From Clostridia bacterium (GTDB lineage: Bacteria > Bacillota > Clostridia > RGIG6154): 62,914 nt of DNA. Shown here in pieces: positions 37,642 through 59,462 of this stretch. The notes under the pieces are model-generated. The model did not search any database and had not been told where the DNA came from. It was given only the letters and a program-made list of their open reading frames with translations. The stretch is from positions 1-62,914 of the forward strand of contig JAZNOU010000010.1 in the NCBI GenBank assembly GCA_045589295.1. The letters are read 5' to 3'. Within the stretch, counting starts at the first letter, position 1, and each line of letters opens with the position of its first letter. A program made the position numbers and the translations under genes.

Positions 37642-38274
37642 TTATTTTGACATTAACTCTCTTATTTTGACATCTTTCACCATGTTACTGTTTTCCTCTA
37701 AACACTTTACAAAAACCCCGTTTATTTCATAAATTCCCTTTTCATAAAATTCGTCATGGCATTTTAGTTTTATATCATAATATGTTTTTCCGCTTTTTGC
37801 TTCTTTTATTAAAAATTTATTATTCAAAAATACGGCAATTTTTTCCGTAACACAAGTTGAATTTTTGACAAATGGCGTAAGCCCCGCCTCTAATCCAAGA
37901 AAATCAAACTCGCTTTGCGGAATAGGGGAATAAATATTCATAAAACGCACAATAAGTGCTATTTTTGTTAATATTTCAATGTTTTTTTTACTTAAATTTT
38001 CAACGTAAACACCAATGGGCATTTCATATAAATCCACACCGTGCCGTGCGCTTATTTTCTCAAGCGTCTCTTTTGGAAAAAATGACATCAGACTTTGATT
38101 TTGAGAAAACAATTGTTCAAAATCGTAAGATATAGTAAAGTCTTCGGGACTTTTTTTTATTATCTTTCTTGCCCTTTTTAAAGTTTTTGTGTATATGATT
38201 TCAAATTCAAAATCTTGGATGTTTATTTTTTCTTTCTTCTTTTTTCTGCTCTTTCGTATTATTTGTACTTTCAT
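37642..38274 (-). CDS. Hypothetical protein
   Basis: Long ORF with RBS AAGGTG before MKVQIIRK; no recognised motif. Confidence 0.55.
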   Translation of the reverse strand: MKVQIIRKSRKKKKEKINIQDFEFEIIYTKTLKRARKIIKKSPEDFTISYDFEQLFSQNQSLMSFFPKETLEKISARHGVDLYEMPIGVYVENLSKKNIEILTKIALIVRFMNIYSPIPQSEFDFLGLEAGLTPFVKNSTCVTEKIAVFLNNKFLIKEAKSGKTYYDIKLKCHDEFYEKGIYEINGVFVKCLEENSNMVKDVKIRELMSK

Positions 38275-38307
38275 ATTTTCACCTTTAAAAGAAATTATGC
38301 TTTCTTT

Positions 38308-38334
38308 CACAAAAATATAACCTGCTCATATGAT
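38308..38334 (+). promoter_or_regulatory. Candidate mother-cell (SigK/SigE-type) promoter of cotJABC
   Basis: AC (38309-38310), 16 nt spacer, CATATGAT (38327-38334), matching AC-N16-CATANNNT. Confidence 0.5.
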
Positions 38335-38379
38335 GAAATTGAAGATATTTTCTTCAGTTTATGTGAAAGGACTTTTTTT

Positions 38380-38565
38380 ATGACTAATAATTGTATGCCC
38401 GGCGGTAACTGGTCCGACGTTAAGCGTCCGCTTGCGCAGGCCTTTGTTGTAAGACAAGGCGAAGGCGAAGATATGTTTTGCCCGGCGGAAGCTTTGAAAA
38501 AAGGCACTGTTTATCCCGCTCTTTATATGCCATACACTTTCTGGAGGTTTAAAAATGAAGAATAA
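38380..38565 (+). CDS. cotJA: Spore coat protein CotJA
   Basis: PLAQAFV..Q...EALKKGTVYPAL..PY; precedes cotJB. Confidence 0.85.
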   Translation: MTNNCMPGGNWSDVKRPLAQAFVVRQGEGEDMFCPAEALKKGTVYPALYMPYTFWRFKNEE

Positions 38566-38803
38566 TGAAATGCTCTCAAGGCTTATGGCTCTTAATTTTT
38601 CTATGATTGATTTAAACCTTTATCTTGACACACATCCTTGCGATGCGGACACAATAAAAAGATTTAATGAACTGAAAAAGGAATATGAAGATTTAAAATG
38701 TGAATACGAAAAGATTTACGGCACACTTACGCCCGGGACTATCGACAAAGCCGAATGGACATGGCTTTCAGACCCATGGCCGTGGGAAAAAATGTTTTAT
38801 TAA
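38555..38803 (+). CDS. cotJB: Spore coat protein CotJB
   Basis: DLNLYLDTHP, YGTL, WTWLSDPWPWE. Confidence 0.95.
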   Translation: MKNNEMLSRLMALNFSMIDLNLYLDTHPCDADTIKRFNELKKEYEDLKCEYEKIYGTLTPGTIDKAEWTWLSDPWPWEKMFY

Positions 38804-38820: not shown

Positions 38821-39007
38821 ATGTGGATTTATCAGAAAAATCTTGAATACCCGGTCAACATCAAAAGACCTGACCCGAAGATGGCTCAGCTTATCTTATC
38901 ACAGTACGGCGGTCCCGACGGCGAGCTTGGTGCATCGCTTCGTTACCTTTCTCAGCGATATTCAATGCCTACCAAAGAGGCAAAAGGTCTTTTAACCGAT
39001 ATTGGTA
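38821..39007 (+). CDS. cotJC: CotJC (Mn-catalase family), 5' segment, codons 1-62, interrupted by element 1
   Basis: MWIYQKNLEYPV, QYGGPDGELGASLRYLSQRY, LLTDIG; similarity stops at GGTA. Confidence 0.93.
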
Positions 39008-40576
39008 GTTATTATCAAAAATGTTACTCTTTTCCGTAAAAAAAAACTTTCTGTCCTTAATCCCTTTCAGATATACCTCAATATCATTCTTACTATTGAC
39101 AACAATTTGGCCCAAAACTTCTTTAGCAACAGAATCATCAAACTCTTCAAAATTAACAAGTTTGTTCACTACAGCACATATTTCCTTTATCAGCTCATCT
39201 TTGTTTTCAACGACAGTATTTTTATCTCTCTCCTGTTTAATTTCCTCGGTCAGTCTATCAATCTCTTCCTGATACTGCTCCTTTAATTTTACAAACTCAT
39301 CTTTCGTTATTTCGTTATCATAATAGGAGTCAATAATTTTTAGTTTTTTAGAGTCAAGTCTTGCAATATTTCTTTCAGCTTTTTCAAAATCGTAACTCTC
39401 TTTTTTCTTGTTTTTTAAAGCATCTGTTATTACTTTTGTAAGTTTATCAACTATCCTTTTTTTATTGGTTGAAACCTCATTCAATGCTTGTAATACCGCA
39501 CATTCTAAAATTTCATTACCAATATCTTTGTTAGTACAACCAATCATTTCTCCGTTAACCTCATGTTGTACTCCATTTTTAAACTTATTATAGCAACCCC
39601 AAATCTTTCTCTTTGTCCCATTATTACGTTTTTTGAAACGTGCTACATATCTTCTTCCACATTGTCCACATTTAATTTTACCTGAAAAAGCATATCTGTT
39701 TGAATGTTTTGACTTAGTTTCTTCGTAGTTTTTCGATTTTCTTTCAAATTCCGCCTGAACAAAATCAAAGGTCTCTCTATCGATAATTGGATCATGATGG
39801 TCTCTTATATAAACCATTTCTTCTTCGCCTCTGTTATACTTTTTCTTATGAGTTAAAAAGTCAGGAGTAATTGTCTTTTTCTGTAATAAATCACCCACAT
39901 ATTTTTCATTTTGTAAGATGGTACGAATGGACTTGTTTGTCCATTCGCTATTACCATTCTTTGTTTTATGTCCTTCTTCTTGCAACTCTTTTGCAATGAT
40001 ATGAATCCCTTTACCCTCTAAATATTTGTTATATATATGACGCACCAGTTTTGCTTCTTCTTCGTTAACAGTTAAAACTCCATCTTTCAAATGATACCCT
40101 AAAATATTACGACCAAATACAACCCCTTTTTCCATTTGCCTTTTTTGTCCCCATCTGACACGTTCAGAAGTTTTTCGGCTTTCTTCTTGAGCAATACTTG
40201 CCATTATTGTCAAACGCAATTCACCATCGCTGTCAAGTGTGTCAATATTATCATTGAGAAACAAAACACCAACACCTATTGACTTTAATTCTCGTGTGTA
40301 TTGAAGTGTATCAACTGTATTACGTGCAAATCTTGAAACCTCTTTTGTGATAATTTTATCAACCTTTCCATTTTTGGCATCTTTCAGCATCCTGTTAAAA
40401 TGTACACGTTTGTCAGTATTTGTTCCACTAATTCCTTTATCTGCGTATATATCAACTAATTCCCATTCTTTATTTTCATTAATTTTCTGTTCAAAATATA
40501 ATTTCTGACTTTCAAACGAATTTGCCTGGTCGTCCTTATCGGTTGACACTCTGCAATATGCTGCAACTCTTAACAT
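38969..40576 (-). CDS. Large serine recombinase of element 1; ORF crosses the left att site
   Basis: AAYCRVST catalytic Ser, SRFARN, AQEESRKTSERV, Zn ribbon CGQCG, coiled coil. Confidence 0.95.
   Translation of the reverse strand: MLRVAAYCRVSTDKDDQANSFESQKLYFEQKINENKEWELVDIYADKGISGTNTDKRVHFNRMLKDAKNGKVDKIITKEVSRFARNTVDTLQYTRELKSIGVGVLFLNDNIDTLDSDGELRLTIMASIAQEESRKTSERVRWGQKRQMEKGVVFGRNILGYHLKDGVLTVNEEEAKLVRHIYNKYLEGKGIHIIAKELQEEGHKTKNGNSEWTNKSIRTILQNEKYVGDLLQKKTITPDFLTHKKKYNRGEEEMVYIRDHHDPIIDRETFDFVQAEFERKSKNYEETKSKHSNRYAFSGKIKCGQCGRRYVARFKKRNNGTKRKIWGCYNKFKNGVQHEVNGEMIGCTNKDIGNEILECAVLQALNEVSTNKKRIVDKLTKVITDALKNKKKESYDFEKAERNIARLDSKKLKIIDSYYDNEITKDEFVKLKEQYQEEIDRLTEEIKQERDKNTVVENKDELIKEICAVVNKLVNFEEFDDSVAKEVLGQIVVNSKNDIEVYLKGIKDRKFFFTEKSNIFDNNYQYRLKDLLPLW
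39004..39022. other. Left att junction of element 1
   Basis: Core GGTA 39004-39007; arm TATTATCAAAAAT 39010-39022. Confidence 0.85.
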
Positions 40577-40704
40577 TCGTATACCTCACTTTCCATTTTT
40601 CTAACACATTCAAGTAATTCTTCCTCGGTCAATAATTCTCGTTCTTTAAGTGCTTTTAAAACGCCTATCATTAGTAATGTGTCAAAGTTGTTCTCATTTC
40701 CCAT
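40570..40704 (-). CDS. 44-aa SHOCT-like small protein overlapping the recombinase start (candidate directionality factor); not in ORF track
   Basis: MGNENNFDTLLMIGVLKALKERELLTEEELLECVRKMESEVYEC, RBS AGGTGA; stop overlaps recombinase ATG. Confidence 0.7.
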   Translation of the reverse strand: MGNENNFDTLLMIGVLKALKERELLTEEELLECVRKMESEVYEC

Positions 40705-40962
40705 TACACATCACCTGATAAAATGTGCGAATATAAACATTGAAATTATATACTATTCCGCACATAAAGTACACAGTTTTTCTATAACTGTCCTTGTAAA
40801 TGTTTATGAATTTGAGAACTTGACCTATAACATAAAACGTATCATATACGTAAGAAATTAACAAAACAAACAACTCCAAGCATAAGATATTAAACCTACT
40901 CCTTGCGAAGTTATGCCTCTAAATCTGTATGATTAGTTGTTTGTTAAGTGATTTAGGGATTT

Positions 40963-40993
40963 AATAGGGTGGGCGGCTTAAACCCACCCTATT
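40963..40993. terminator. Terminator downstream of the SSB-like gene
   Basis: AATAGGGTGGG...CCCACCCTATT. Confidence 0.75.
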
Positions 40994-41006
40994 TTATAAG
41001 AATACA

Positions 41007-41540
41007 TTATTCTTTAAAGTCATCTTGAGGTGATGACATATACTTACGAGGGTCAAACCTATCTTTCAGTAATTGAATGTTGTGCAGTCGGCAACTAATC
41101 CCTTTACACCCTTTAACATTAAACGGATGAAAACTAATGCTAACTCGTCCATACTGACCATTATATACATCTGTAAATAAAACATCTTCATTTTTATGAT
41201 TAACTACTCCAGGCTTGTAAACCGATGACGCATTTAAAAAATAGCTATTGGAATACATAATGTCGTCAGATGATTCATCGCCATTTCTTAATGGTAATTT
41301 TAGTGTTGCATAGTCAACATCTTCCCCAAATTTATTTTTTCCGTTTTCTATAGCATTGTTTATGGCAGTTTTTATTTTTTTAATAGTTTCAATATCTTCT
41401 TTGGGAATAATAACAATTGTACTGTATTTAGGTTCTGAATTATCATATAAAACCTTAGGGCAAAACAAATTTGCTCGATTTAATATTATACGTCCAGTTA
41501 CCACTTTTTCTATAACGTTTTCATTCAATAGATTTTCCAT
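41007..41540 (-). CDS. Phage-type ssDNA-binding protein (DUF2815-like)
   Basis: EPKYS..IIPK.D, LPLRNGD, YFLNASS, YNGQYGR, GISCRLHNIQ, acidic DDF tail. Confidence 0.8.
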   Translation of the reverse strand: MENLLNENVIEKVVTGRIILNRANLFCPKVLYDNSEPKYSTIVIIPKEDIETIKKIKTAINNAIENGKNKFGEDVDYATLKLPLRNGDESSDDIMYSNSYFLNASSVYKPGVVNHKNEDVLFTDVYNGQYGRVSISFHPFNVKGCKGISCRLHNIQLLKDRFDPRKYMSSPQDDFKE

Positions 41541-41570
41541 AATATTTTACTCCTTATTTAAATATAAATT

Positions 41571-42998
41571 TTACTGTACAAAATGTACAAAATGAACAGA
41601 ATTCAATTCATATATAGTTGATTTACGACCAACTGTATTTAAACTTATACTGTCTTTGACTCGAATATATCCGTGTTCTGCTAACAAATTAAGGGTTTCA
41701 CTAATATCTTCGGTCTTTTTAAAATACCGACTTCTGCATAAAAGATAAATTTCTCTCTTGCTAATTTCATTTACATTAATACTTTCAAGTTTTCTTAAGA
41801 CATATTTAGCCTTTATCACAGATTCACTTGCTCCCATAATGGAAAATGCCATTTTAGCGTGTTCTATAAAATATATCGCTATTTCGCAAGCATTTTCCAT
41901 TATGGTTTTATTAATAATTGAATTACCTACGCCATTGTTTTCTATACAATGTAAGATGCCAGCAATACGAATGGTAGTTCCATGAAGTTTACTTGCCCAA
42001 TCTCTAATATCATTAAATTCATTGATTAATTGAGGTTCAATCCAATCGAAGAAACTCTTACATATTTTGTTTGCCTCGTCAGAAAGACTCAGATTATTAA
42101 CACCTTCAATATTAAGCAAATTGACAAGTCGAGCATTGAATTCTGTTAATATCATATGGTTTAGTGCCGGGGTATCATAAGCCCTTTTACCCATAAAAGA
42201 AATCGGTTTACAATATAAAAATCGCCCTAAAAACCCTTGTCCTCTTAAATCACCATTACTCATAATCCCCTCTAAAACACTTTCTTGTGCCATTAAAAGA
42301 ATAGTCAGCAAAGCATTTTCTATAAATTCTGGTTCTCTACTCTTTCTGTCAACACGAATTGTATCTCCAGTATAAGATTTTAAAAGAGTTTCAAAAGAGC
42401 TTTTATTACTATATCTACCAGTAATATTATTGAACATACCACCTTCTGATGAAATAACAGACATTTTACCGTTGTTTTGTGCCATAAGAGTAGTCAATGC
42501 TTCGATTGTAAAATCATCTGATGTTAACCTCATTAGTTGAGTTTTATTTTTTGATAACTCATCAATTTTTAATTGAATTTTTATAACTCTCTCATAATCT
42601 TCTTCGTTCTCAAATTCTTCTTGCTTTTTCTGTAATTGTTTAATCTTAATTTCATCTTCCAATATTTTTTTCTTACGTTCAACATTTACAGTCTTTTCAT
42701 ACTCATATAATGGAGCTGATAAAATTTTCAACAATGGACTTTTTCTTTCGCCAGGTTCAGCTATAATTAACACATACAAATTAGTTGATTCTTTATAATC
42801 AGGTTTAACTTGTATAAAAACCTTCCCCTGAAGACATACAGATATTATTGCTAATTCTGCCAAGACAGCCATTTCAATCGGTACTGCTAAATTATCCGAT
42901 ATATTTTCTACATAGTCTCGCAATAATTGAGGTAATGTGTGTAATGGAAATGGCGGTGTATCAAACGATTCAAATGGTTTAATTGGGTTCCAGTCCAA
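41571..42998 (-). CDS. YfjI/DUF3987 family replication-associated P-loop protein
   Basis: NLYVLIIAEPGERKSP, TIEAL, SSEGG, RVDRKSR, GFLGRFLY; TTG start after GGGGGTG. Confidence 0.8.
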   Translation of the reverse strand: MDWNPIKPFESFDTPPFPLHTLPQLLRDYVENISDNLAVPIEMAVLAELAIISVCLQGKVFIQVKPDYKESTNLYVLIIAEPGERKSPLLKILSAPLYEYEKTVNVERKKKILEDEIKIKQLQKKQEEFENEEDYERVIKIQLKIDELSKNKTQLMRLTSDDFTIEALTTLMAQNNGKMSVISSEGGMFNNITGRYSNKSSFETLLKSYTGDTIRVDRKSREPEFIENALLTILLMAQESVLEGIMSNGDLRGQGFLGRFLYCKPISFMGKRAYDTPALNHMILTEFNARLVNLLNIEGVNNLSLSDEANKICKSFFDWIEPQLINEFNDIRDWASKLHGTTIRIAGILHCIENNGVGNSIINKTIMENACEIAIYFIEHAKMAFSIMGASESVIKAKYVLRKLESINVNEISKREIYLLCRSRYFKKTEDISETLNLLAEHGYIRVKDSISLNTVGRKSTIYELNSVHFVHFVQ

Positions 42999-43044
42999 AA
43001 CTAAACACCCCCTTTCATTTTGTTCAAATTGTACATTTTGTACA
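41575..43044. repeat. 28-bp inverted repeats (3 x 9-bp units) flanking the DUF3987 gene
   Basis: 41575-41602 TGTACAAAATGTACAAAATGAACAGAAT vs 43017-43044 ATTTTGTTCAAATTGTACATTTTGTACA (25/28 as reverse complement). Confidence 0.8.
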
Positions 43045-43114
43045 TACATTAACGCGTCCGTTAGAAATATTTGAACTTGTATTTTGTCCGTCTGTACAAA
43101 CTTTGCATTTCTGC

Positions 43115-43143
43115 TTGACAACATCCAAAGTGTAACATATAAT
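43115..43143 (+). promoter_or_regulatory. Consensus SigA promoter for the XRE regulator
   Basis: TTGACA-17-TATAAT. Confidence 0.8.
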
Positions 43144-43206
43144 AAGTTATGTGTAAATAAACTCGTACTTATGATTTTAAAATATTTTTAGATTTGAGGT
43201 TAAGTT

Positions 43207-44022
43207 ATGATTAACAATTATTCAGAAAAACAATTAGCTGATATTATTAAAGATACAAGATTGAATATGAAAAAACATACCCAAGATAACATGGCAGAAC
43301 AGTTAGAACTTTCAAGCAGACAAGCCTATGCTAACATAGAAAACGGAGAGTCTAAAATTCAGTTAAAGCACATTATCAAGTTGTGTGAAATTTTTGAATG
43401 TGATATAGGATATTTATTTGGTGAATATCCTACAAAAAGACGAGTATCTTCAGATGTTCAAGAAGTTACAGGGTTAAGTGAAACATCAATAGAGTATCTC
43501 CTTGAAGCTAAAAAAGAATATGATTCTGCAAAACTCGAATATGATAAAGCAGATAATAATGATGACAAATTATCTGCTGAAAACAAATTCTTAGTATCAG
43601 GGATAAAACTGCAAACATTAAACTTTATTCTTGAAAACGATGAAACGTATGGTCTATTGGATTTAATAGGGAGATATTTATTTGGAATGCCTATTTTTCG
43701 TAATGATATTGACGAAACTGCTGAATTGTATACGGATATATCTGAAGCCGATTTCGAAAAGCTTGAAATTACAGACTATTTACAAAAATGTCCTATAAAT
43801 TATTTGTATCAATTTGACGTGAAAAGCAAAACAACCTTTCCAATTTTAGACTTTATATCAACAGATGAAATATATGCTTCACTCCTTGTTCAGTTAAATA
43901 ATAAACTGTCAGAAATAGGCAATAAATTTCGTGAAGATAATCAAAAAAATTTCAAAGAGGCTCTTAATAAGTATTTGAAAGAAAATTACCCAGATGATGT
44001 GATTAATCAAATTTTGGATTAG
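43207..44022 (+). CDS. XRE-family HTH regulator with uncharacterised C-terminal domain
   Basis: TQDNMAEQL..SRQAYANIENG..LCEIFECDIGYLFG; VTGLSE.SI. Confidence 0.8.
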   Translation: MINNYSEKQLADIIKDTRLNMKKHTQDNMAEQLELSSRQAYANIENGESKIQLKHIIKLCEIFECDIGYLFGEYPTKRRVSSDVQEVTGLSETSIEYLLEAKKEYDSAKLEYDKADNNDDKLSAENKFLVSGIKLQTLNFILENDETYGLLDLIGRYLFGMPIFRNDIDETAELYTDISEADFEKLEITDYLQKCPINYLYQFDVKSKTTFPILDFISTDEIYASLLVQLNNKLSEIGNKFREDNQKNFKEALNKYLKENYPDDVINQILD

Positions 44023-44134
44023 TCTCTTTCTATTCTCAAAACAACATAATCCATTCTCAAATCACTTTAATTTAGACACCAATATAAATTCATTAAAATT
44101 TATGTATTAAGTGTTAAAATGGCGATTTAAACAC

Positions 44135-44168
44135 AAAAAGCTACGGAGTAAAAATTCCGTAGCTTTTT
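44135..44168. terminator. Bidirectional terminator
   Basis: AAAAAGCTACGGA...TCCGTAGCTTTTT. Confidence 0.8.
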
Positions 44169-44171
44169 AAA

Positions 44172-44420
44172 TTATGCTAAACATCTCTGAATTATAAAAC
44201 ATAATACTAAAATTATAACCGTTACCCACCAAGGGATTATTTCTTCTAATCCTCCGCCTGAACTTCCATTTTCAACAATGACTTTTTCTTTGCCATCCCC
44301 AAAAGCATTGTCCCTTGATGAGTTTTTAATTGTATAACTTTTTCCATCATTGGTAGTAAATATTTGTTCTTTACCACCACCGAAAGCATTATCTCTTGAA
44401 CTATTTCTTATTCTTGCCAT
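44172..44420 (-). CDS. Small membrane-anchored protein with two NSSxDNAFGxGK repeats (paralog A)
   Basis: RBS AAGGAG; repeated motif; C-terminal PWW plus TM helix. Confidence 0.75.
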   Translation of the reverse strand: MARIRNSSRDNAFGGGKEQIFTTNDGKSYTIKNSSRDNAFGDGKEKVIVENGSSGGGLEEIIPWWVTVIILVLCFIIQRCLA

Positions 44421-44435
44421 AATAACAACTCCTTA

Positions 44436-44750
44436 TCAACTAAACAGGTTAGGAATAAAGAATAATACTTTTCCTACAAATCCCCAAAACTCACCAGGAA
44501 ACACAAAACACACTACCATAATTATTATAACGAGTAATAGACACCCCCACCAAGGTAGTGCATCTACTATCATTTCGGCTAATCCACCACTTGAGCCTTT
44601 TTCCTCAACAATCTTTTGTTTACCACTACCATAAACATTATCAACAGAAGAATTTTTAATAATGTATTCCTTTCCGCTATCATCGGTAAAGATTTGTTGT
44701 TTCCCACCACCATATGCATTATCGACCGAACTGTTTCTTATTTTTGCCAT
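44436..44750 (-). CDS. Small membrane-anchored protein with two NSSVDNxYGxGK repeats (paralog B)
   Basis: RBS AAGGAG; same architecture as paralog A. Confidence 0.75.
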   Translation of the reverse strand: MAKIRNSSVDNAYGGGKQQIFTDDSGKEYIIKNSSVDNVYGSGKQKIVEEKGSSGGLAEMIVDALPWWGCLLLVIIIMVVCFVFPGEFWGFVGKVLFFIPNLFS

Positions 44751-44779
44751 ACGTAACAACTCCTTCTGTATATTATAAA

Positions 44780-45376
44780 TCAAGTTCTTTTAATTTCTTC
44801 AGAAGAATAGGTTAGCTCATTCTTGCTTTTTTCTATACATTCAAGAATATGTGTAATCTCTTCTTTTGTAATGTGGTCAAGTTCGATTAAAGAGTCATCT
44901 GTTTCTAATTTTTTTGTATAAAGAAACCATTGAATAGCAAACCATATATCGTTCTCATTTAAATTGTCAAATCCCTTTATATATACCGGATGACTCAAAA
45001 TTTGCTCTAAAATAAGATAGCATATTTCATATTCAAATGTACCACTTATAACCTTTTTGAAAGGTGGATTAAATAAATTTATAGTTGACTCTTTATAATG
45101 AGACAAAAAGTCCTTATAAATATATTTTTCCAATTCATCACATTGGATAGCTCCAGGCCAAAAACAACCAACCCAATCGTCAATATCATATGTAATCCAT
45201 TCTTCAAAAGTCATTCCGTTTTTTCTGTAATTAATATCAAATTCTACACAACGAGTTTTGTAGAACTCTTTAAGTAGTTGATATTTTTCTTCTAAAGATA
45301 ATTCTGAATCATCAATGACATAAATGGCGTCTCTTACAGATTTTAGTTTTATTTGTTCTCTGATTTTATTAATCAA
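44780..45376 (-). CDS. Hypothetical protein
   Basis: 198-aa ORF, start overlaps upstream stop. Confidence 0.6.
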   Translation of the reverse strand: MINKIREQIKLKSVRDAIYVIDDSELSLEEKYQLLKEFYKTRCVEFDINYRKNGMTFEEWITYDIDDWVGCFWPGAIQCDELEKYIYKDFLSHYKESTINLFNPPFKKVISGTFEYEICYLILEQILSHPVYIKGFDNLNENDIWFAIQWFLYTKKLETDDSLIELDHITKEEITHILECIEKSKNELTYSSEEIKRT

Positions 45377-46392
45377 TTTTTGTTCCCCTTATTTATAAAT
45401 TCCCTTTTTAGCTTATCAAATTTTAATGATGATTTGCTTTTATAGAATTTATCATTTGCACTTACAAATTCCCATAATTGTTTTCCCTTTTCTTCATCAC
45501 CATTTAAATATTTACTAATAATTTGTAATGGTTTATCCCGCTCTGATAATTCATCTTCTGAAATTTTTGCTTTGTATAAAGATGAAATCTTTGGAATACA
45601 TTCATATTCCCGAAATACACTATTATGTTTTATTGCTCCTATATGTATTTCATCTTGATTATCAATATATAGCCCTTGTAGGCAACAACAATCCCTATTA
45701 TCCCCAATCTCAACAACTAAAACCTTTCTTAATTCAGCAAAAGGTCGGCAATCAATAGTTAATATATCTCCAACCTTAAAAGATGTTGGGAGGTTTAAAT
45801 CTTCATTATGTGAACAAACATCAAGTTTTTTTATCACTTGTGATTTGTTTGGATTTTTTTTGTATTTCTTTTTGTAATCATAATCAAACTTATAAAACCA
45901 AATATCACCTTTTAACGAAATGTAGTAATCAATGATTTTTTCATAAATACCTAATTCAGATAAGGTCCATTTTTCTAAAACAAACCAATCACATAATTCT
46001 TCAAATGTATTATATTCGAATAGCTGACAACAACTTTCCTTAATATATTCAATTACTTTTTCACTATTGTTAAATGGGAAACATTCATATATTTTTGGTG
46101 AAATCTCGCTATCATTTAAATTATCTGCATCGATTCCTTGTCCTTTAAGAATATAAATTTCACTTTCTTTTAATTCTAACTGAGATAAAGCATTGTTTAT
46201 TGCTTTATAACTATTTTTATATATTTCATCTGTTTCTTTCAGTTCCTCTAAAATTAACAACTTATCTTCTAGAGATATTCGTGCACCACAAATTATATTG
46301 TTAATTTGGGATAATGATAAATCATCAAAATTTTCATCAAGATAATTTTTCATTTCATCTGATTGAAATAAATCTAAAATTTTGTCTTTCAT
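45373..46392 (-). CDS. Hypothetical protein
   Basis: 339-aa ORF, RBS AAAGG; GDILTIDCRPF, GDNRDCCC. Confidence 0.65.
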   Translation of the reverse strand: MKDKILDLFQSDEMKNYLDENFDDLSLSQINNIICGARISLEDKLLILEELKETDEIYKNSYKAINNALSQLELKESEIYILKGQGIDADNLNDSEISPKIYECFPFNNSEKVIEYIKESCCQLFEYNTFEELCDWFVLEKWTLSELGIYEKIIDYYISLKGDIWFYKFDYDYKKKYKKNPNKSQVIKKLDVCSHNEDLNLPTSFKVGDILTIDCRPFAELRKVLVVEIGDNRDCCCLQGLYIDNQDEIHIGAIKHNSVFREYECIPKISSLYKAKISEDELSERDKPLQIISKYLNGDEEKGKQLWEFVSANDKFYKSKSSLKFDKLKREFINKGNKN

Positions 46393-46444
46393 AATATCAA
46401 CCTTTCATTCAAAATTAAGTAGCAGATAATGTTAAATAAAACTA

Positions 46445-46648
46445 TTAATCATATTTACTGCTACACAAAAATACTTTCATTTGTGCACTATACTTATCTG
46501 TTGAAAATGCTTTTATTACACCACTTTCATATTTGTTGTTTGTAGGCCATACCTTAACAACTCCATTTTCGTACTTGTTATCAGTAACATATACTTTAAC
46601 TACTCCTGATTCATATTTATTATCTACAAAATATATTGGTGTTGCCAT
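46445..46648 (-). CDS. Small tandem-repeat protein (DUF6150-like, ~14-aa KYE repeats)
   Basis: DNKYESGVVKVYVT / DNKYENGVVKVWPT / NNKYESGVIKAFST; RBS AAGGAG. Confidence 0.65.
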   Translation of the reverse strand: MATPIYFVDNKYESGVVKVYVTDNKYENGVVKVWPTNNKYESGVIKAFSTDKYSAQMKVFLCSSKYD

Positions 46649-46844
46649 TAAAATCACTCCTTATGAATTGCCTATTATCTGCTACTGTAAAATTTTGAAC
46701 TCTTTAACAAAGTATATTGTAACATACCTCTCAACTTTTTGCAACTATATTTTAACTTAATATTTAACTGCAATAATAAGTATATGAATAAATGCTGAAA
46801 TCATTTAAAATAATAATATAAATTGTAATGTAGAGGTGATAACA

Positions 46845-47018
46845 ATGGATTTTATAATAAAAAAACCAACAAGCTCAAATAGAACTATCAGAATGCCTGA
46901 TACACTTATTGAGCAAATCAGTCAAATTGCCACCGAACAAGAAATTTCTTTTAATCAGGTAGTTATTCAATGTTGTGAATTTGCTATTGACAATCTTCCT
47001 AAAAAGGATAAAAAGTAG
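46845..47018 (+). CDS. Ribbon-helix-helix DNA-binding protein
   Basis: NRTIRMP..LIEQI..IA....SFNQVVIQCCEFA; RBS GAGGTG. Confidence 0.75.
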   Translation: MDFIIKKPTSSNRTIRMPDTLIEQISQIATEQEISFNQVVIQCCEFAIDNLPKKDKK

Positions 47019-47519
47019 CCTAACCAACTTCTTCTATGTATAGTTTCTCGATTTAAATATAAACCATAATTTAAAAAATGTACACCGTTTTTCTCAAGCG
47101 TTGTACATTTTTGTTTTATTATCATTAACTAAATACTTGACTTGAAATTAATCTCAAATGTGTTATAATAATTACATATTCAGAAGGGGATTTATATGAT
47201 GGAATAAAAAAACGAATAATACAATAACATAATAAAAAGAAATATTGACATTTTATGATAAATGTGGTAACATTCCTTATACGATTTTCTGTTTTCATTT
47301 TTAACCAAATCAAAATTATTTTATTATGCACTAATGTTTAAATGTTAGACAAGCTTATTATATTGTCTTGATTGTTTAACGAGCAATTATTTTTTGTTGG
47401 GTTTGATGGATTGAAATTGTAGAACAATTAATTATTGAATTATAAAATCATTTGTTGCAACAATTTAATATTTTAAATAGCTATTTAAATTACAGTACGA
47501 ATTAAAAAGGAGAATGGCT

Positions 47520-47672
47520 ATGTTAAGATTAAGCATTGAAGGAATTATCGTAATATCTATTGTAAGAATCCTTAGTTTGGTCTTAAAATACATTTTTAAT
47601 ATTATTATAGTTTTTTTAGCTCACAAATATAGAATAGACATTAAAAGCAAAAATTTTTCTGTAAAACATTAA
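47520..47672 (+). CDS. 50-aa hydrophobic peptide with basic tail (type I toxin-like); not in ORF track
   Basis: RBS AAGGAG; MLRLSIEGIIVISIVRILSLVLKYIFNIIIVFLAHKYRIDIKSKNFSVKH; hairpin AGGGATAG...CTATCCCT-TTTTT at ~47688-47718. Confidence 0.55.
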   Translation: MLRLSIEGIIVISIVRILSLVLKYIFNIIIVFLAHKYRIDIKSKNFSVKH

Positions 47673-47847
47673 TTCTAAAAATTTATCAGGGATAGTTCAT
47701 TAGAGCTATCCCTTTTTTCTAAAAAGGATTTATCATTACTCATGAAATGGCCCATTACGTTATACATATATTGCATTTTATGTATATTTCTAATATAATA
47801 ATGTCAGAGAAATAAAAAATAGTATATTATGGAGAAACATTTATTAT

Positions 47848-49212
47848 ATGAAAGATTCAAAATTCATACGAGAAATAAAATTATTAATTAATTTCGTGCG
47901 CTCATACGGAATTCATCATCTTGATTATTATGTAGATGTTAATTCATTATCACCAATTAAAACTGACAAACAAAATGAAATTATTAAAAAAATACATAAT
48001 GGTTTCTTTTTGGCACAAGAGAATGTTATAAGATTATTAACTAAAGTTTTAATGGAGCAAAAGGAATTAAAGAAGGAGTTAAAAGAAAGTCGACGAAATC
48101 GTGACGAAATAGCAATTAAAGAATATGAAAACAAACTTAACAAAGTTAAATATCAAGAATGCACATTACGAAAAATAATGGATTCCATCGCGTGGCAGAT
48201 TTTTCGTTATGATTTATCAAGTATTCGCAGATTATATAATGGTAATACTTGTATTGATATAACTGATTCAAATATAGTATCTGAAATTGAATATATAAAT
48301 TCCCATAGAGAACATAATCCTGTCGATTTTGTATTAATTAACGATTTAACATCATTCCTTCAAGTTGGAGATATAACAATAGTTAGCAAAGATAAAAAAA
48401 TTCAAATAGTTGAAATGAAAAGAGGAAAAGTTAACAATGAAATATTAAATATTATCAACGATTTTTCAACAAATCCGTGTCCCAGAAAATTATATTATAC
48501 ACTTGAAAATAAAGATAAAAAATTTATGGAACAATTAAAGCGAGATTTAAAACAAATGCAGAATGCCATTAATGTTGATAATATATTTAAAAAAGGGGAA
48601 GGAATTGATAATGTCCTTGGGAAAAATGTGAAAATTATTCAAGAAGAAATAGAGCTTAATACATTTGATAGAGAATTGTTAAATTTAATTGAGAAGTGTA
48701 AAAAGAATAATTATGCTATATCTATTATAGAAGATTGTCTATTTATTGGGGTGTACAATACAAATAAATTTCCGAGTAATATATTTGATGCTTGGGTGAA
48801 CCCTTTAAAAATTAAAACTCCTATTTTTGATTTGAGACAATCATTAACTATACCTTTAGCCTATCCATTATTTTTACATCCTTTTTCAGATAATATATTA
48901 GCTGATATAGTATCCGGGGATATTGTTATTAAAATGACTATGAATATTGAAGCATTACTTAAGAAAATCGAAAGCAAAGGATTGAAAATAAGATGGCTTT
49001 CCAAAAGAGAAACGGCAAGAATAAACACTCAGCTTAAAGGAGCTAACCATTTATTTATGATGGATGGATGTGGAATATCTATTGAAAATGATGATAATAG
49101 TTATTTTTTATTTGATGGTTTATTGTTAAGAATATTCAGTAGTTTCAATATCCCCTCTGCTATCGTTGAATATATTCTTGCTACATTTAATTATATTGAT
49201 AACGACAATTAA
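47848..49212 (+). CDS. Hypothetical 454-aa protein with possible PD-(D/E)XK nuclease motif
   Basis: NDLTSFLQVGDITIV...IQIVEMKRG; very AT-rich; own terminator-like IR downstream. Confidence 0.6.
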   Translation: MKDSKFIREIKLLINFVRSYGIHHLDYYVDVNSLSPIKTDKQNEIIKKIHNGFFLAQENVIRLLTKVLMEQKELKKELKESRRNRDEIAIKEYENKLNKVKYQECTLRKIMDSIAWQIFRYDLSSIRRLYNGNTCIDITDSNIVSEIEYINSHREHNPVDFVLINDLTSFLQVGDITIVSKDKKIQIVEMKRGKVNNEILNIINDFSTNPCPRKLYYTLENKDKKFMEQLKRDLKQMQNAINVDNIFKKGEGIDNVLGKNVKIIQEEIELNTFDRELLNLIEKCKKNNYAISIIEDCLFIGVYNTNKFPSNIFDAWVNPLKIKTPIFDLRQSLTIPLAYPLFLHPFSDNILADIVSGDIVIKMTMNIEALLKKIESKGLKIRWLSKRETARINTQLKGANHLFMMDGCGISIENDDNSYFLFDGLLLRIFSSFNIPSAIVEYILATFNYIDNDN

Positions 49213-49344
49213 TCTAAACAAACAAAAAGAATCGTTCTGTTTTTAATAACAAAATGATTCTTTTTGATTATACACTAACATATCTGCTATGATGCTGACT
49301 ATAAAAGAAATGTAGCCAAAATATCTTCTATACGTTATTTTCTT

Positions 49345-49920
49345 TCATAAATTTACTGCATTGTAACAATCAATAATCACTTTTTGAGTAATACCTATGT
49401 ATCTTAATGTAATTGCACTCGATGAATGATTTAAGAGTTTTTGAAGTGTTTCTAATGGTACCTTATTAATGTATCTGTGATATGCCATAGTCTTTCTCAA
49501 TGTATGTGTACCGAAATTACCTTTAATCCCTAAATCATTTGTAAGTGTTTTAATGATATGATGCAGAGGTCTTACTCCTAAATGACTACCTTTTCGACTT
49601 TTAAATAGGAAATCCTCCATATCATAGTGTGCTAAAGAGTTAAGATATATCCGTATCGCATCTTTAGCATTTTTATTTAATGCGAAATTCCTTGTTTTTC
49701 CCGTTTTCTGTTCTTTGATAGTTACTGTATCAAATATTATATTTCCGTCTGTAACATCTTTAATTTTTAATGATAATAAATCTCCTGCTCTTAATCCAAC
49801 ATTGATTCCCACAACAAATATACAGTAATCTCTCTTGTTTTCTTTTCCGTATAAATATTGCTTGATTTTGTTAATATCTCTTGTGTTTTTAATTGGTTCA
49901 ACCTCTTTGGGTAATGTCAT
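49345..49920 (-). CDS. Short tyrosine recombinase (catalytic domain only)
   Basis: GLRAGDLL, KTGK, HTLRKT, LNHSS..IT.RYIG. Confidence 0.92.
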   Translation of the reverse strand: MTLPKEVEPIKNTRDINKIKQYLYGKENKRDYCIFVVGINVGLRAGDLLSLKIKDVTDGNIIFDTVTIKEQKTGKTRNFALNKNAKDAIRIYLNSLAHYDMEDFLFKSRKGSHLGVRPLHHIIKTLTNDLGIKGNFGTHTLRKTMAYHRYINKVPLETLQKLLNHSSSAITLRYIGITQKVIIDCYNAVNL

Positions 49921-50011
49921 ATGTTTAATCTCCTTTTTCAATTGTAACTTAATTTTTTACAATTATATATCGCGTGTGTGAAAAAGTACACCGTTTTTCA
50001 CATAAACAAAA

Positions 50012-50159
50012 AATATTACCTTTTGCCCATTTAATGAACATAAGGTAATATTCAAAACTTGTTTTTATTAAATTTTAAATCTCATATTTCCCGAAACCAT
50101 TACAAGAGTTAAGTTTGAAAGATTTTTAGCAATATTACCTATTGATAAAAGGTAATATT
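50012..50159. repeat. Two inverted pairs of AATATTACCT (candidate recombinase-binding sites)
   Basis: 50012-50022 / 50042-50052 and 50131-50140 / 50150-50159. Confidence 0.75.
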
Positions 50160-50201
50160 ATAGTATAATATAACTACATTAAACCGAAAAAGGAGAAACA
50201 A

Positions 50202-50750
50202 ATGACTAAAAAGATAATTAAAGAAACCCCGTTTGGCTACAAAACCTCAAAAGAATTTTTTAACAGAATAATTACTCCAAAATTCATTAAACTTACTAAT
50301 CACAATATTGATTCCGACTTATTCGAGCTATACTATGACTTCATTTTTGCTGCAGGTGCATTAAGAGATTGGATTATCAATGAATTTCATTTGACATCTT
50401 CGCAAATAGCCAAATACTTTTTTGAAGATAAATACTTTAATATTTTACAATCAATATATAACAATACAAAACACTATGAATTGGACACTGGCAAAAGGAA
50501 ATATGATGTTCTATTAGATGGTAAGTCTCTATTCAATGCAGACGAAAATGGAGATTGCTATTGGGATGATAATGCGATATGGGATGATGAAGCTCTTTGG
50601 GCGGATAGAATTGAAGGCGAAAGTGGAAATTTCAACTATATCTGCACAGTCGTTGAAAACAAAACAGATAACATAGAAAGTATATATTTATTTGAAATTT
50701 GCAAACAAGTTTATTATAATTATAAATCAATAATAACCAATTTAGAATAA
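50202..50750 (+). CDS. Hypothetical protein, possible HEPN-like
   Basis: RBS AAGGAG; F..A..LRDWI...YNNTKH; promoter TTGATA-16-TATAAT at 50142-50169. Confidence 0.6.
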   Translation: MTKKIIKETPFGYKTSKEFFNRIITPKFIKLTNHNIDSDLFELYYDFIFAAGALRDWIINEFHLTSSQIAKYFFEDKYFNILQSIYNNTKHYELDTGKRKYDVLLDGKSLFNADENGDCYWDDNAIWDDEALWADRIEGESGNFNYICTVVENKTDNIESIYLFEICKQVYYNYKSIITNLE

Positions 50751-51083
50751 TATCTCCAAAGATTCAACCATTGATTTCCCTACTTATTATCCACATATCT
50801 ATTTTAACAAATACGCTACCAGAATTTTAAAAACACATAATTAATTCTAACTGATACTTCACGACATCTTTTGGAGTTTTTTTAAATCGCTTAAAATGTT
50901 TTGGAATTAATTAGAATTACATAGACTTATTTAAAAAAATATTTTTTGCTTGTCCGAGTTTTGTTTTTAAAAATTTTTTATATCCATTTTGCTTGCTTTT
51001 TTATTTCGTTTATTTTGCAAAAATAACTCTTGCATTTTTATTCATTTTGTGATATACTGTATTTTGTAAGGAAGGTGTTATAT

Positions 51084-51458
51084 ATGTCTAACTATACATT
51101 CGATTTTAATTTTGTAAAATCTGGCGCCCCTATTGTAACTATAAGTTCACTTGGTCTTTCGTTCAATAGAATTTCTCGTACACTTTTAAAATTCCCATCC
51201 AAGATTAACGTTGGTTTTGACGAAAATGCTCGAGTTATTGGCATTAAAGCTCATGATGAAAACTCAAGTGTTGCCAACTATGAATTTGAAAGTCGTGTGA
51301 AAAATGAATGGATACGCATTGGATGTAAAGATTTCATCAAATACTTATCGAGTATAACAAAAATAGATTTTACAACTGCAAAACAATTTATTGCTGAATA
51401 TGACGACTTATTAAAAATGCTTATTGTTGTCGTTGATGAAGACCATATTAAAAAATAA
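51084..51458 (+). CDS. Hypothetical protein
   Basis: RBS AAGGAAGG; 124 aa; upstream TTGCAT...TATACT. Confidence 0.65.
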   Translation: MSNYTFDFNFVKSGAPIVTISSLGLSFNRISRTLLKFPSKINVGFDENARVIGIKAHDENSSVANYEFESRVKNEWIRIGCKDFIKYLSSITKIDFTTAKQFIAEYDDLLKMLIVVVDEDHIKK

Positions 51459-51487
51459 TACAATAAAAAGAAAAAAGATAGTGTGTA

Positions 51488-51672
51488 ATATGTATGTGCG
51501 AAATACATATCCTCACTATCTCCCAGCTTGACAAAGCAATCACCAAAGGTGAGTACAATATCAAATTCAACGTATATATTATACCACCTTTGGATCCAAA
51601 TTGCAATACCCTTTTGTCAAGAATATGAAAGGAGTTGCTCTGGGTCTTTTTATTGTTTTATATAAAACAATA
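51488..51672. ncRNA. Structured leader with candidate antisense RNA
   Basis: Long hairpin 51527-51621; minus-strand TTGCAA-17-TATAAT inside it; hairpin 51488-51510; 22-bp palindrome 51651-51672. Confidence 0.5.
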
Positions 51673-51692
51673 GAGTAAGGAGGTTTAAAAAA

Positions 51693-51812
51693 ATGGCTAA
51701 AACCAAAAGCAGTGTACGTGGAGTCCAAAACAAAAAAATTGTTGTGGTTAAAGGTTACACTAAGAAAAATGGTGTTAAAGTTGACGGTTATAGACGTTCT
51801 ACACCAAACTAA
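51693..51812 (+). CDS. 39-aa basic peptide; not in ORF track
   Basis: RBS AAGGAGG; MAKTKSSVRGVQNKKIVVVKGYTKKNGVKVDGYRRSTPN; downstream hairpin AGGGTTG/CAACCCT. Confidence 0.7.
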   Translation: MAKTKSSVRGVQNKKIVVVKGYTKKNGVKVDGYRRSTPN

Positions 51813-51884
51813 CAGTTTAGAATTAACAGAAGGGTTGCTTAAACAACCCTCTAAACTTACAAGAGATAAAAATTTAATTTAAGG

Positions 51885-52850
51885 ATGGTGTTTTTTATTA
51901 AGAGAGGAAAAAACTATTTAAATATCCCTCAAATCACTTTAGAGGAAATTAAAACAACCAAAACAAATTATATACAGCTTGGGTGCGTGTTAAAAGCTTC
52001 TAAAAATGACATTAAAAACGGTTGTTACAAAGATTTATCAATAGAAATAAAAAATGGAAATGTAAAATATATCGATAGTATACTCCCTCCAACATACAAT
52101 GGCAGATATTCTTCATACAACCAAAAAGGAAGAAGTATAATCAGAAGAAACTTGCCTAAAGTAACAAAGTGGTTTTCTCACGATATATACCCTTATGGAG
52201 ATACATCAAGAAATACTGTTTTAGCAACATACTCACGAAAAGTATGGCAAAGAGAAGAATGGCTTCCTGAGTTTTTAACATTTAGTGTCTCTTTAAAACA
52301 AGAAGATTCAGAATTTTGTTACTTTATCATTAAATGTGAAGAAATTATTGACAAAAGGTCTAATGATGCAGAATTCAGAGTTCTTTATAATATTAACTTA
52401 ATATCCGAAAACTGCGGAAATTATCAAATCATAGAAAATGATAAAGATGATGACTACATTTTAAAAACATTATATGTAAACTGGGAACTTCTTCCTCCTG
52501 GGCATATCGAAATCCAAAGTATAACAAGAAATTTCGAAACAAAGTCGCCTCAAGAACAAAAAGAAGTATTAGAAAGATTTGAATATATTAAATCTTTTAA
52601 TCCTAAAAAACTTATAAAAGGTTCAAACAAGTTTTCACAATATTTCGGTGCTATAATGAGCAACGACGTAGTTGTACTTGAAAATACCCATGTCGGAAAT
52701 GCAATTTATGTATTTTACAATGATTGGGAGATTTTATCCAAACTCAGCCGAACAGAGCTTTTAAGAATGAATTCAAAAAACGTTACAAGAATACGTCACT
52801 CTGGTAATTGGAAAGAGTTGCTAAATAAAACAATAAACAACAAAGAATAA
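51885..52850 (+). CDS. Hypothetical protein (mobile-element cargo)
   Basis: 321-aa ORF; VNWELLPPG, YFGA, LEN..GNAIYVF...W..LSKLSRTELL, RIRH. Confidence 0.7.
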   Translation: MVFFIKRGKNYLNIPQITLEEIKTTKTNYIQLGCVLKASKNDIKNGCYKDLSIEIKNGNVKYIDSILPPTYNGRYSSYNQKGRSIIRRNLPKVTKWFSHDIYPYGDTSRNTVLATYSRKVWQREEWLPEFLTFSVSLKQEDSEFCYFIIKCEEIIDKRSNDAEFRVLYNINLISENCGNYQIIENDKDDDYILKTLYVNWELLPPGHIEIQSITRNFETKSPQEQKEVLERFEYIKSFNPKKLIKGSNKFSQYFGAIMSNDVVVLENTHVGNAIYVFYNDWEILSKLSRTELLRMNSKNVTRIRHSGNWKELLNKTINNKE

Positions 52851-52858
52851 GTATTTAG

Positions 52859-52887
52859 AAATCAGGGGTCAAAACGACCTCTGATTT
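52859..52887. terminator. Bidirectional terminator; lies just after the alternative recombinase stop codon
   Basis: AAATCAGGGGTC-aaaac-GACCTCTGATTT. Confidence 0.75.
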
Positions 52888-52897
52888 TGTATAAACA

Positions 52898-53014
52898 TTA
52901 AATTGCAACATATACTGTAACTTTTACATTATTATACAAGTCTCTATGATAACTCCCTAAACGTGAGGAATTTATACTCTCCAAAACGGAATACCTATTT
53001 TGGATAATAGGTAG
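52898..53014 (-). other. Orphan 38-codon segment that becomes the recombinase C-terminus after excision
   Basis: LPIIQNRYSVLESINSSRLGSYHRDLYNNVKVTVYVAI*, in frame with the recombinase when the GGTA cores are joined. Confidence 0.7.
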
Positions 53015-53017
53015 GTA
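52992..53017. other. Right att junction of element 1
   Basis: Arm ATTTTGGATAATA 52997-53009, core GGTA 53014-53017; extra IR TACCTATT/AATAGGTA. Confidence 0.85.
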
Positions 53018-53391
53018 CAGAAGAACTTGCTCACATGGAGATCGTTGCAACAATTGTTCGCCAGCTTTTAAAGGGAAGCGGAAGAGAACAGATTGCAGAC
53101 GAATACAGTCCGATGTATATTGACCACGGCCTTGGAATCTATCCTGCATCTGCTGCCGGCGTTCCTTACACTGCCGCCTCAATGCAGGTTAAGGGCGATC
53201 CTATCACCGATATAGCAGAGGATATGGGTGCAGAACAAAAAGCACGCTCAACTTATGAATATATTTTAGATATGGCTGACGATCCTGATGTCATCGACCC
53301 TATCAAATTCCTAAGAGAACGTGAAATTGTTCACTTCCAGCGCTTTGGTGAACCAATCCATACTAATTTAAGGAGATTTTTCCCATACTAA
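53014..53391 (+). CDS. cotJC: CotJC central segment; family similarity ends at QRFGE (~53352), then a 12-aa atypical tail
   Basis: GTEELAHMEIV, AAGVPYTA, KGDPITDIAEDMGAEQKARSTY, FLREREIVHFQRFGE. Confidence 0.92.
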   Translation, partial: GTEELAHMEIVATIVRQLLKGSGREQIADEYSPMYIDHGLGIYPASAAGVPYTAASMQVKGDPITDIAEDMGAEQKARSTYEYILDMADDPDVIDPIKFLREREIVHFQRFGEPIHTNLRRFFPY

Positions 53392-55000: not shown

Positions 55001-55052
55001 AACTACACCCCTTTCTGTAAGCGGAGCGGATGTTTCCGCTCCACTCCCTTAA

Positions 55053-55229
55053 TCAGCCTGCTTTATGCGTGAAAATCCTGTAGAGTTCCTCTACGATTTG
55101 TTCTTCAAGTTCCTTTCGCTGTTCAGCGTTAAAAACAACGCTGTGCTTAACTTCTTTGATTTTATTTGATATATCAGTATAATTTGTATGGTATCCTGTG
55201 TTAATTGTTGTTGCAACTGCTTGTAGCAT
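55053..55229 (-). CDS. 58-aa protein upstream of recombinase 2 (candidate directionality factor)
   Basis: RBS GGAGG; EEQIVEELYRIF; hairpin GGAGCGGA/TCCGCTCC between it and the recombinase. Confidence 0.65.
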   Translation of the reverse strand: MLQAVATTINTGYHTNYTDISNKIKEVKHSVVFNAEQRKELEEQIVEELYRIFTHKAG

Positions 55230-55299
55230 AGTATCGACCTCCGATTTTTCTTGTTCGATAATAAGCATATTATCTTAACACGGACACACGAAGTTCCGC

Positions 55300-55983: not shown

Positions 55984-56018
55984 ATCACATCCCTCCTTGT
56001 TTGGTATGGCGGTAGCGG

Positions 56019-57671: not shown

Positions 57672-57945
57672 ATCGAACACCTCCAATAAAATAATTTTAT
57701 GAGGTATTCAGTTAAGGCTAACCGCTAAGGGATATAGTTTAGCAGTTATGCGTTTAACCGCCTGCCTCTATATCCAATAATACAACAGCATAAAAGATTT
57801 GGAAATATGTTTACTGTCTATCGCCAACACGCTAAATCACACACGAAAAAATCCCGTGTCCAATTATTTTTTTACAAAACAAAAAAAGCCACACAATCGT
57901 GCGACTTTTAGCTAATTGAGGTATCTTATGTTTTTATGGTGCAGT

Positions 57946-59277: not shown

Positions 59278-59402
59278 AGTTTCACCAACTTTCTGTTATG
59301 CTATTTAAAATTATATCACAATTCCTGTATAAATTCAATTAGCATAGTGCCGAAAACGATGGTTTTTGAAACTTTATGAGATTTTCCCAAAATTAAAAGC
59401 AA

Positions 59403-59442
59403 AAACGGGTATTGGGATAAAGTTGTTTCCCAATACCCGTTT
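59403..59442. repeat. 15-bp inverted repeat downstream of the resolvase
   Basis: AAACGGGTATTGGGA...TCCCAATACCCGTTT. Confidence 0.7.
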
Positions 59443-59462
59443 CAAAAACAAAGTTCCGATAC

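Follow-up and report, generated by a model that had tools for sequence, protein, structure and literature searches.

The window considered here (the whole stretch of DNA that was analysed, 62,914 nt, positions 1 to 62,914 of contig JAZNOU010000010.1, NCBI GenBank assembly GCA_045589295.1) comes from a Clostridia bacterium (GTDB lineage Bacteria; Bacillota; Clostridia; RGIG6154) and carries a mobile element whose large serine recombinase gene spans the attachment (att) site of the element itself. The element occupies positions 39008–53017, an insert of 14,010 bp if the core sequence GGTA is counted once, and splits the sporulation gene cotJC at codon 62/63. The core lies inside the open reading frame (ORF) of the recombinase—hence, the integrated prophage and the excised circle encode different C-termini, as in a self-truncating integrase. 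Judged by comparison with relatives, the 38-residue tail that only the circle joins to the recombinase is real coding sequence under purifying selection. Taking sequence and predicted models together, the best explanation, and a probable one in our view, would be a gene with two states: a long form that integrates and a short form that, together with a small factor, excises. The parts of the gene and its surroundings are the following.

39005..40576, minus strand: body of the element-encoded large serine recombinase, 524 codons (Pfam domains; relatives 70–79% identical)
38969..39004, minus strand: recombinase end found only in the prophage, 11 codons plus stop from antisense cotJC (unconserved; variable in length among relatives)
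52898..53014, minus strand: detached 3′ end of the recombinase, 38 codons plus TAA, contiguous with the body only in the circle (open frame; comparison with relatives)
52859..52887, no strand assigned: two-way terminator hairpin past the stop of the tail (fold and terminator scan)

In the prophage, the recombinase ORF (38969..40576, minus strand) has no stop codon inside the element; it crosses the core GGTA on the left and ends in antisense cotJC after 535 amino acids. In the circle, the minus-strand frame that enters at 53014 stays open for 38 codons up to a TAA at 52898–52900, which extends the body to 524 + 38 = 562 amino acids. About 10 nt after this stop follows a hairpin (−13.3 kcal/mol, z = −3.5, with 1 of 200 shuffles as good), which a terminator scan returned as the single terminator-like site on the minus strand and which, at 52859–52887, also closes the converging plus-strand ORF 51885–52850. 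An initial annotation, made from the letters of the window, had already described the exit of the stopless frame through the left core to 535 residues, its in-frame continuation in the circle to 562 residues and the hairpin beyond it—all of which our analysis confirms.

A single open frame of 38 codons is, on a rough estimate, possible by chance in AT-rich DNA. The tail was compared in six sequences, namely the window, four relatives for which the other element end could be recovered, and locus L028, in which body and tail are naturally fused; the recombinases of these five close relatives are 70–79% identical to that of the window at the protein level. In all six the tail is in frame from the same start, and five share the same stop codon, with the stop of L027 lying two codons (6 nt) later. 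Over the 15 pairs, the ratio of nonsynonymous to synonymous substitution rates (dN/dS) is 0.11–0.45 in the claimed frame versus 0.75–2.14 and 1.72–5.16 in the other two frames, and variable codon positions 1, 2 and 3 are found in 17, 8 and 29 of the 38 codons, respectively. In the 114 nt downstream of the tail stop, identity falls to 25–37%. The shared frame of all six tails, the stop common to five of them and the codon-periodic substitutions exclude chance. An in-frame tail conserved in homologous elements is what the initial annotation had proposed to look for; 6/6 keep it under purifying selection, and it is neither out of frame nor unconserved among them.

Other sources of this conservation were considered and rejected. 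DNA binding at attP does not account for it, as the conservation is 114 nt long, codon-periodic and ends at the stop codon. For a separate small prophage gene, a start would be required: in L107, the stretch from the upstream stop to the tail lacks any in-frame start, and the starts in the other sequences come without a visible ribosome-binding site. An opposite-strand gene is likewise rejected, since no plus-strand ORF covers 52901–53014. Having no translation start of its own, the tail can exert its function only from the circle or from a tandem copy.

In L028, body and tail are contiguous in the chromosome, exactly as predicted for the circle. The full-length gene with its tail, a diverged partial duplicate (with a 17-nt deletion) of the body's last ~125 nt, and attL stand in this order at 548–2345 of this locus. 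As the two copies differ, an assembly artefact is impossible. The sequence of L028 shows that DNA with the predicted attP joint has existed. The arrangement is most readily understood as what remains of a tandem insertion—a natural "locked" variant, to judge from its sequence; the opposite element end did not turn up in the L028 genome. Contiguous genes are also seen in more distant recombinases, where P0144 (38% identical), P0052 and P0099 end in a similar motif, a short stretch of alternating hydrophobicity that has Tyr or Phe at its centre. By this sequence comparison the tail is an old and integral C-terminus of this branch of the family, with attP placed in the linker between body and tail. 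In a HMMER search against 1.84 billion representatives, P0144 was the only one among the 150 matches listed that aligned to the end of the query. A word-based search with the C-terminal region returned only the query and one integrated-form cluster (2 matches out of 12 candidates), and in tblastn against a phage collection (763 records matched) query residue 475 was the furthest reach among the 25 matches listed.

The part of the protein that both states share is well defined. Its Pfam matches to Resolvase (E 1.8e-35, residues 4–152), Recombinase (E 9.9e-25) and Zn_ribbon_recom (E 5.8e-10) all fall within residues 4–366. The catalytic domain has invariant R9 and S11 (alignment A3) and matches PDB entry 3g13 with E 2.8e-45, and the zinc-ribbon cysteines C303, C306, C328 and C347 are conserved. 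AlphaFold2 (AF2) modelled the full-length L028 homologue with a mean predicted local distance difference test score (pLDDT) of 87 and was confident up to about residue 513, including strands past the coiled coil. The coiled coil itself appears as long helices at 372–475 (pLDDT >84), and the alignment with the SPbeta integrase extends up to residue 474. Over residues 515–562, which comprise the tail, pLDDT is 30–60. Many homologues terminate near the position of the junction. From sequence and model, the truncated protein is a canonical complete body, keeping the catalytic, recombinase, zinc-ribbon and coiled-coil parts and the strands that follow. The earlier statement that the conserved body ends before the junction, so that both forms retain the catalytic, zinc-ribbon and coiled-coil regions, holds with respect to Pfam, cysteine conservation and AF2. 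Structure prediction of the full-length form, also proposed in the initial annotation, succeeded for the body of the L028 homologue and gave the tail neither a supported fold nor a docking site.

A small ORF precedes the recombinase gene and overlaps its start.

40570..40704, minus strand: 44-amino-acid ORF, candidate recombination directionality factor (RDF) (conserved in six close relatives; complex prediction)

Complex prediction of the 44-residue protein with the recombinase gave an interaction prediction score from aligned errors (ipSAE) of 0.77, the best of three controls reaching 0.01. Of solved complexes 58/80 reach that mark, and of mismatched pairs 2/110, counts that apply here only roughly because own alignments entered the prediction. 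The complex runs agree in at least 88% of contacts, with a partner pLDDT of at least 76, and the predicted contacts lie on recombinase residues 368–389, 462–487 and 503–506—that is, on the base of the coiled coil. The model supports binding of the 44-residue protein at this base, where directionality factors bind. Solved integrase–RDF complexes exist, and part of the score may therefore reflect likeness to them.

The insertion site lies in the cotJ operon and comprises the following elements.

38215..38565, plus strand: cotJA (Pfam CotJA, E 2e-11)
38555..38803, plus strand: cotJB (Pfam CotJB, E 2.2e-27)
38821..39007, plus strand: 5′ part of cotJC, codons 1–62 and base 1 of codon 63, with the core at its end (translation)
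53014..53391, plus strand: 3′ part of cotJC, from codon 62 on (translation; comparison with relatives)
39004..39007, no strand assigned: attL core GGTA (identical four bases at both junctions)
53014..53017, no strand assigned: attR core GGTA (identical four bases at both junctions)
39008..39028, no strand assigned: left attP arm, within the recombinase coding sequence (imperfect inverted repeat with the right arm)
52991..53013, no strand assigned: right attP arm, within the tail coding sequence (pairs with the left arm)

The two attP halves are symmetric at 15/24 positions around the 4-bp core. Hereby, the element shows what is expected of a serine integrase, short att sites built of imperfect inverted repeats and a small core; the att palindromes are clearer in a clade of cotJC-targeting recombinases about 51% identical to that of the window (the ~51% clade below). 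Uninterrupted cotJC genes of three same-genus genomes read ...LLTDIG-TEELAH... across the insertion point and are 73–88% identical, and the two cotJC halves of the window, joined in silico, match these intact genes—the target is an interrupted sporulation gene. The intact reading frame across the insertion point in these three genomes implies that the insertion was precise and that excision would restore the gene. Logan contigs from four runs (word shares 0.19–0.27) contained fragments from relatives, and the 39007–53014 link is present in none of the 10 joints listed, which is evidence neither way.

A scan of one genome per species provided 80 loci for a family-wide survey, the five close relatives among them. 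The 5′ part of cotJC, in antisense, adjoins the 3′ end of the recombinase gene in 72/80 loci, and in 68 of these 72 the ORF passes cotJC codon 62; the run-on into antisense cotJC is unconserved and spans 0–197 codons with a median of 10. For the ~51% clade, 17 circles were reconstructed, seven from loci with both ends and ten hand-picked from about 60, which makes this a non-random sample. Long tails of 54–77 amino acids with a shared end motif occur in 8 of these 17 and have a dN/dS of 0.13–0.52 where dS is not saturated. For a 74-residue tail of this clade, AF2 proposes a weak two-strand ribbon (mean pLDDT 68, predicted template modelling score 0.42), and a search found no match for it in phages or plasmids. 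The alignment is suggestive—no more than that—of the 38-residue tail being a shortened version of this longer one. In other clades that target the same cotJC site, the stop of the recombinase falls about 20 nt short of the junction in 14/47 metagenome loci and in 3/3 viral loci, and an ORF in the opposite orientation that ends at the junction is found in 9/47 metagenome loci.

Some loci of the survey show peculiarities of their own. L118, L119, L121–L124, L127, L128 and L147 belong to a 49% identical clade that is oppositely oriented at the same cotJC codon. The recombinase is co-directional with the 3′ part of cotJC; here, the stop codon of the recombinase ends exactly at the junction. In L060 (with L175) and L089, the palindromic att linker is read in a different frame from that of the relatives. 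L060 still reaches a long tail that aligns with the tails of its relatives, implying a compensating frame change across the att region; the tail of L089 is short and decayed. Mini-elements of 3.8 kb in cotJC, at 2304–6139 of L034 and 7805–11580 of L069, suggest element reduction: the one in L034 holds little beyond the recombinase, a small upstream ORF and a ParA-like gene, and in L069 the tail is decayed.

How might the two states be used? As a circle or as a tandem copy, the gene encodes the full 562 residues; as a prophage, it encodes the 524-residue body, to which antisense cotJC adds a few residues without meaning. The full-length form would integrate the incoming circle, and the truncated form would excise the element and restore cotJC, aided by the 44-residue protein. 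For the tail to be under selection, circles have to arise and be translated, and hence the truncated form has to be capable of excision. The most likely role of the tail would be to tune directionality or the efficiency of integration, and less so stability; for directionality, such a role is plausible. A more specific version would make this a topology-encoded switch of direction, in which the tail renders the full-length enzyme deaf to the factor so that the circle integrates, and truncation renders it responsive so that the prophage excises; on the present sequences and models, we hold this version to be unlikely. With such a switch, the RDF-like gene would be translationally coupled to the recombinase gene and the factor always made together with the enzyme, and the tail would leave the body about 20 residues after a strand with a predicted contact to the factor. 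It would then be the DNA state itself that decides on direction, in place of a regulated expression of the RDF—across a whole family of gut Clostridia elements.

A number of points weigh against the division of labour between a long integrating and a short excising form. The division itself is drawn from sequence and predicted models. The low AF2 confidence for the tail supports no docking site or fold, and the small ORF is present also in a clade without the tail swap (L133), so that its presence does not link it to the swap. Of the 17 circles of the ~51% clade, 7 have a short or decayed tail and 2 a gene that stops before the junction; counted among the seven are L059 and L029 with "tails" of 2 and 6 residues, where the paired copy of the C-terminal cotJC part has no att-like arm and is possibly the wrong partner end. 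Recombinases that stop before the junction still target cotJC, which means that the tail is not needed for this targeting. Over the loci compared, the C-terminal swap is common, yet not required for reaching cotJC.

These same observations could mean that attP merely falls in the 3′ part of the gene, and that an accessory tail is of slight benefit to every reaction or to no reaction at all, its loss in the prophage being tolerated and without regulatory meaning. In sister clades, a gene whose stop precedes the junction serves to target the same cotJC site; a decayed or missing tail is seen in 9/17 loci of the ~51% clade, and AF2 is unconfident about the tail. Set against this, the dN/dS of 0.11–0.45 and the stop codon shared by 5/6 sequences (6 nt later in the sixth) show a selected function, and without a start of its own the tail can exert this function only from the circle or a tandem copy; we consider such a by-product doubtful, though it deserves to be kept in mind. 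A different role was raised by the initial annotation, which had seen a degron-like end in the tail and had named stability next to directionality. On the stability reading, the tail would be a degradation signal, leaving the circle form short-lived and the prophage form stable, similar to the tagged repressors of integration-dependent immunity phages. The C-terminus is indeed hydrophobic, and the available passages on those phages describe an attP that removes an ssrA-like tag (PMC6109161, PMC9934374). The tail alignment gives the degron no support, as the last two to three residues are unconserved in the six sequences (AI, PV, PV, PV, PVWN, SI), the conserved part lies further in and conservation spans all 38 residues rather than the end only. 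None of the six ends in Ala-Ala, so that the circle form has no conserved ssrA-like ..AA ending. A simple ssrA-like degron is unlikely from these sequences, and stability control by the tail in general seems very unlikely to us.

The split of an SSV-type integrase gene is usually read as inactivation. Transferred to the window element, integration would disable the recombinase, and excision of the prophage would need a full-length copy from another element. The gene is physically broken upon integration, and a precedent is given by the SSV-type integrase genes, which cross attP according to the part of the source at hand (PMC4383910). Yet every canonical domain is kept in the truncated form and many homologues end near this point; the integrated relatives that were examined have the body as an intact ORF, regular excision is implied by the selection on the tail, and the co-translated RDF-like protein is retained. 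Such a lock-in is therefore highly improbable, and the two-state gene—long form integrating, short form excising with the small factor—is the explanation we carry forward.

Beyond recombinase and RDF-like ORF, the element carries the following recognisable genes.

41007..43124, minus strand: replication module of a Gp2.5/Enc34-like single-stranded-DNA-binding protein and a DUF3987 helicase-primase (domain and family matches)
43207..44022, plus strand: helix-turn-helix repressor-like protein (domain and family matches)
49345..49941, minus strand: short tyrosine recombinase of 198 amino acids (Pfam Phage_integrase, E 1.4e-25; phrog_216, E 4e-52)

For the tyrosine recombinase at 49345–49941, inversion and dimer resolution might be considered as roles. 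Several further ORFs of the element are without family, and no virion genes were recognised among the ten largest element ORFs scanned. By its gene content, the element resembles a replicative island or a satellite more than a complete phage. Outside it, another large serine recombinase gene (53474–55000, minus strand, 508 amino acids), 30% identical to the first over residues 2–227, ends about 80 nt after the cotJC stop; next to it come a D5_N primase-like ORF, ORFs of unknown kind and a small resolvase at 59463–60008. Judging from these genes, 53474–60008 is probably a second island that abuts cotJC. The source genome (1.54 Mb) has at least four more large serine recombinase genes besides the two of the window, on contigs C18, C12, C2 and C8, with open frames of 514–569 amino acids.

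Large serine integrases are prized tools of genome engineering, and the control of their direction is an active question. The family described here offers dozens of natural variants in which the tail is present, decayed, naturally fused (L028) or, in sister clades, absent; if it is true that the tail biases direction, this would be a compact and self-contained switch. On a practical level, gene callers systematically mis-annotate integrated copies of these recombinases, giving them unconserved C-termini of 0–197 codons. The survey also marks cotJC as a widespread integration target in gut Clostridia.

Among the closest known systems is the Bacillus phage vB_BsuS-Goe14, whose SpoIVCA-like serine integrase has attP in its own C-terminal coding region and is truncated by integration into spoVK, as described in the accessible part of the report (bioRxiv 10.1101/2021.11.22.469490). 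Its authors speculate there that the long integrase form integrates and the truncated form excises (bioRxiv 10.1101/2021.11.22.469490). Both systems have a large serine recombinase, attP within its own gene, a sporulation gene as target and a truncation on integration. They differ in clade, in target (spoVK versus cotJC) and in the piece removed, 131 amino acids in Goe14 versus the 38-residue tail here. No RDF was found for Goe14, as far as that part of the report goes, whereas an RDF-like ORF is predicted in the window element. In the portions of the sources considered, the layout of attP in an integrase gene is known from sequence alone, for Goe14 as well as here.

The integrase of Myxococcus phage Mx8 has reportedly about 112 residues replaced. 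It is a tyrosine recombinase with another mechanism and host, unlike the serine recombinase of the window element. Its attP lies within the integrase coding sequence (IntP/IntX); a new 3′ end arises upon integration, and the protein thus altered is, in the excerpt available, reported to stay active with changed properties (PMC6070905). Similarly, the integrase gene of SSV-type viruses (fuselloviruses) extends across attP and is partitioned on integration, according to the section of the paper at hand (PMC4383910); these are archaeal tyrosine recombinases and not serine recombinases. With Goe14 as a serine and Mx8 and SSV as tyrosine precedents, the layout is, by what these partial sources contain, not new in kind. 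Hence, the novelty that the initial annotation implied was overstated: the same layout and the same speculation are in print for Goe14 (10.1101/2021.11.22.469490), and the layout also for Mx8 (PMC6070905).

In the mycobacteriophages with integration-dependent immunity, attP lies near the repressor gene's 3′ end, and the C-terminus is exchanged on integration, which makes the protein behave differently; the passages available bear out this precedent as the initial annotation had cited it (PMC6109161, PMC9934374). There, the gene encodes a repressor and the piece removed is an ssrA-like ..AA tag in these passages, whereas here the gene encodes a recombinase and the tail is unlike that tag. The skin and SPbeta elements are similar to the window element in that they interrupt a sporulation gene and have a large serine recombinase at one end; a small RDF goes with theirs, and a candidate for one is predicted here. 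For skin, skr overlaps the start of spoIVCA in the text available (PMC6957869). The literature passages on skin and SPbeta describe no overlap of a recombinase gene with att, unlike that seen in the window. The window element is assigned to the skin-like class from its sequence. In the portions at hand, the known targets of interrupting elements already include cotJC (10.1101/2021.11.22.469490, 10.1101/2022.02.25.481979). A further likeness is found in SprA, a large serine integrase whose directionality is reported to be affected by its far C-terminus (PMC11722253, available in part). The C-terminal element of SprA is present in both states, whereas here it is removed by DNA rearrangement. What the window element and its relatives add to these systems is a different clade and target, strong comparative proof of a selected tail, a variant in which body and tail are naturally fused, a count across the family and a predicted directionality factor.

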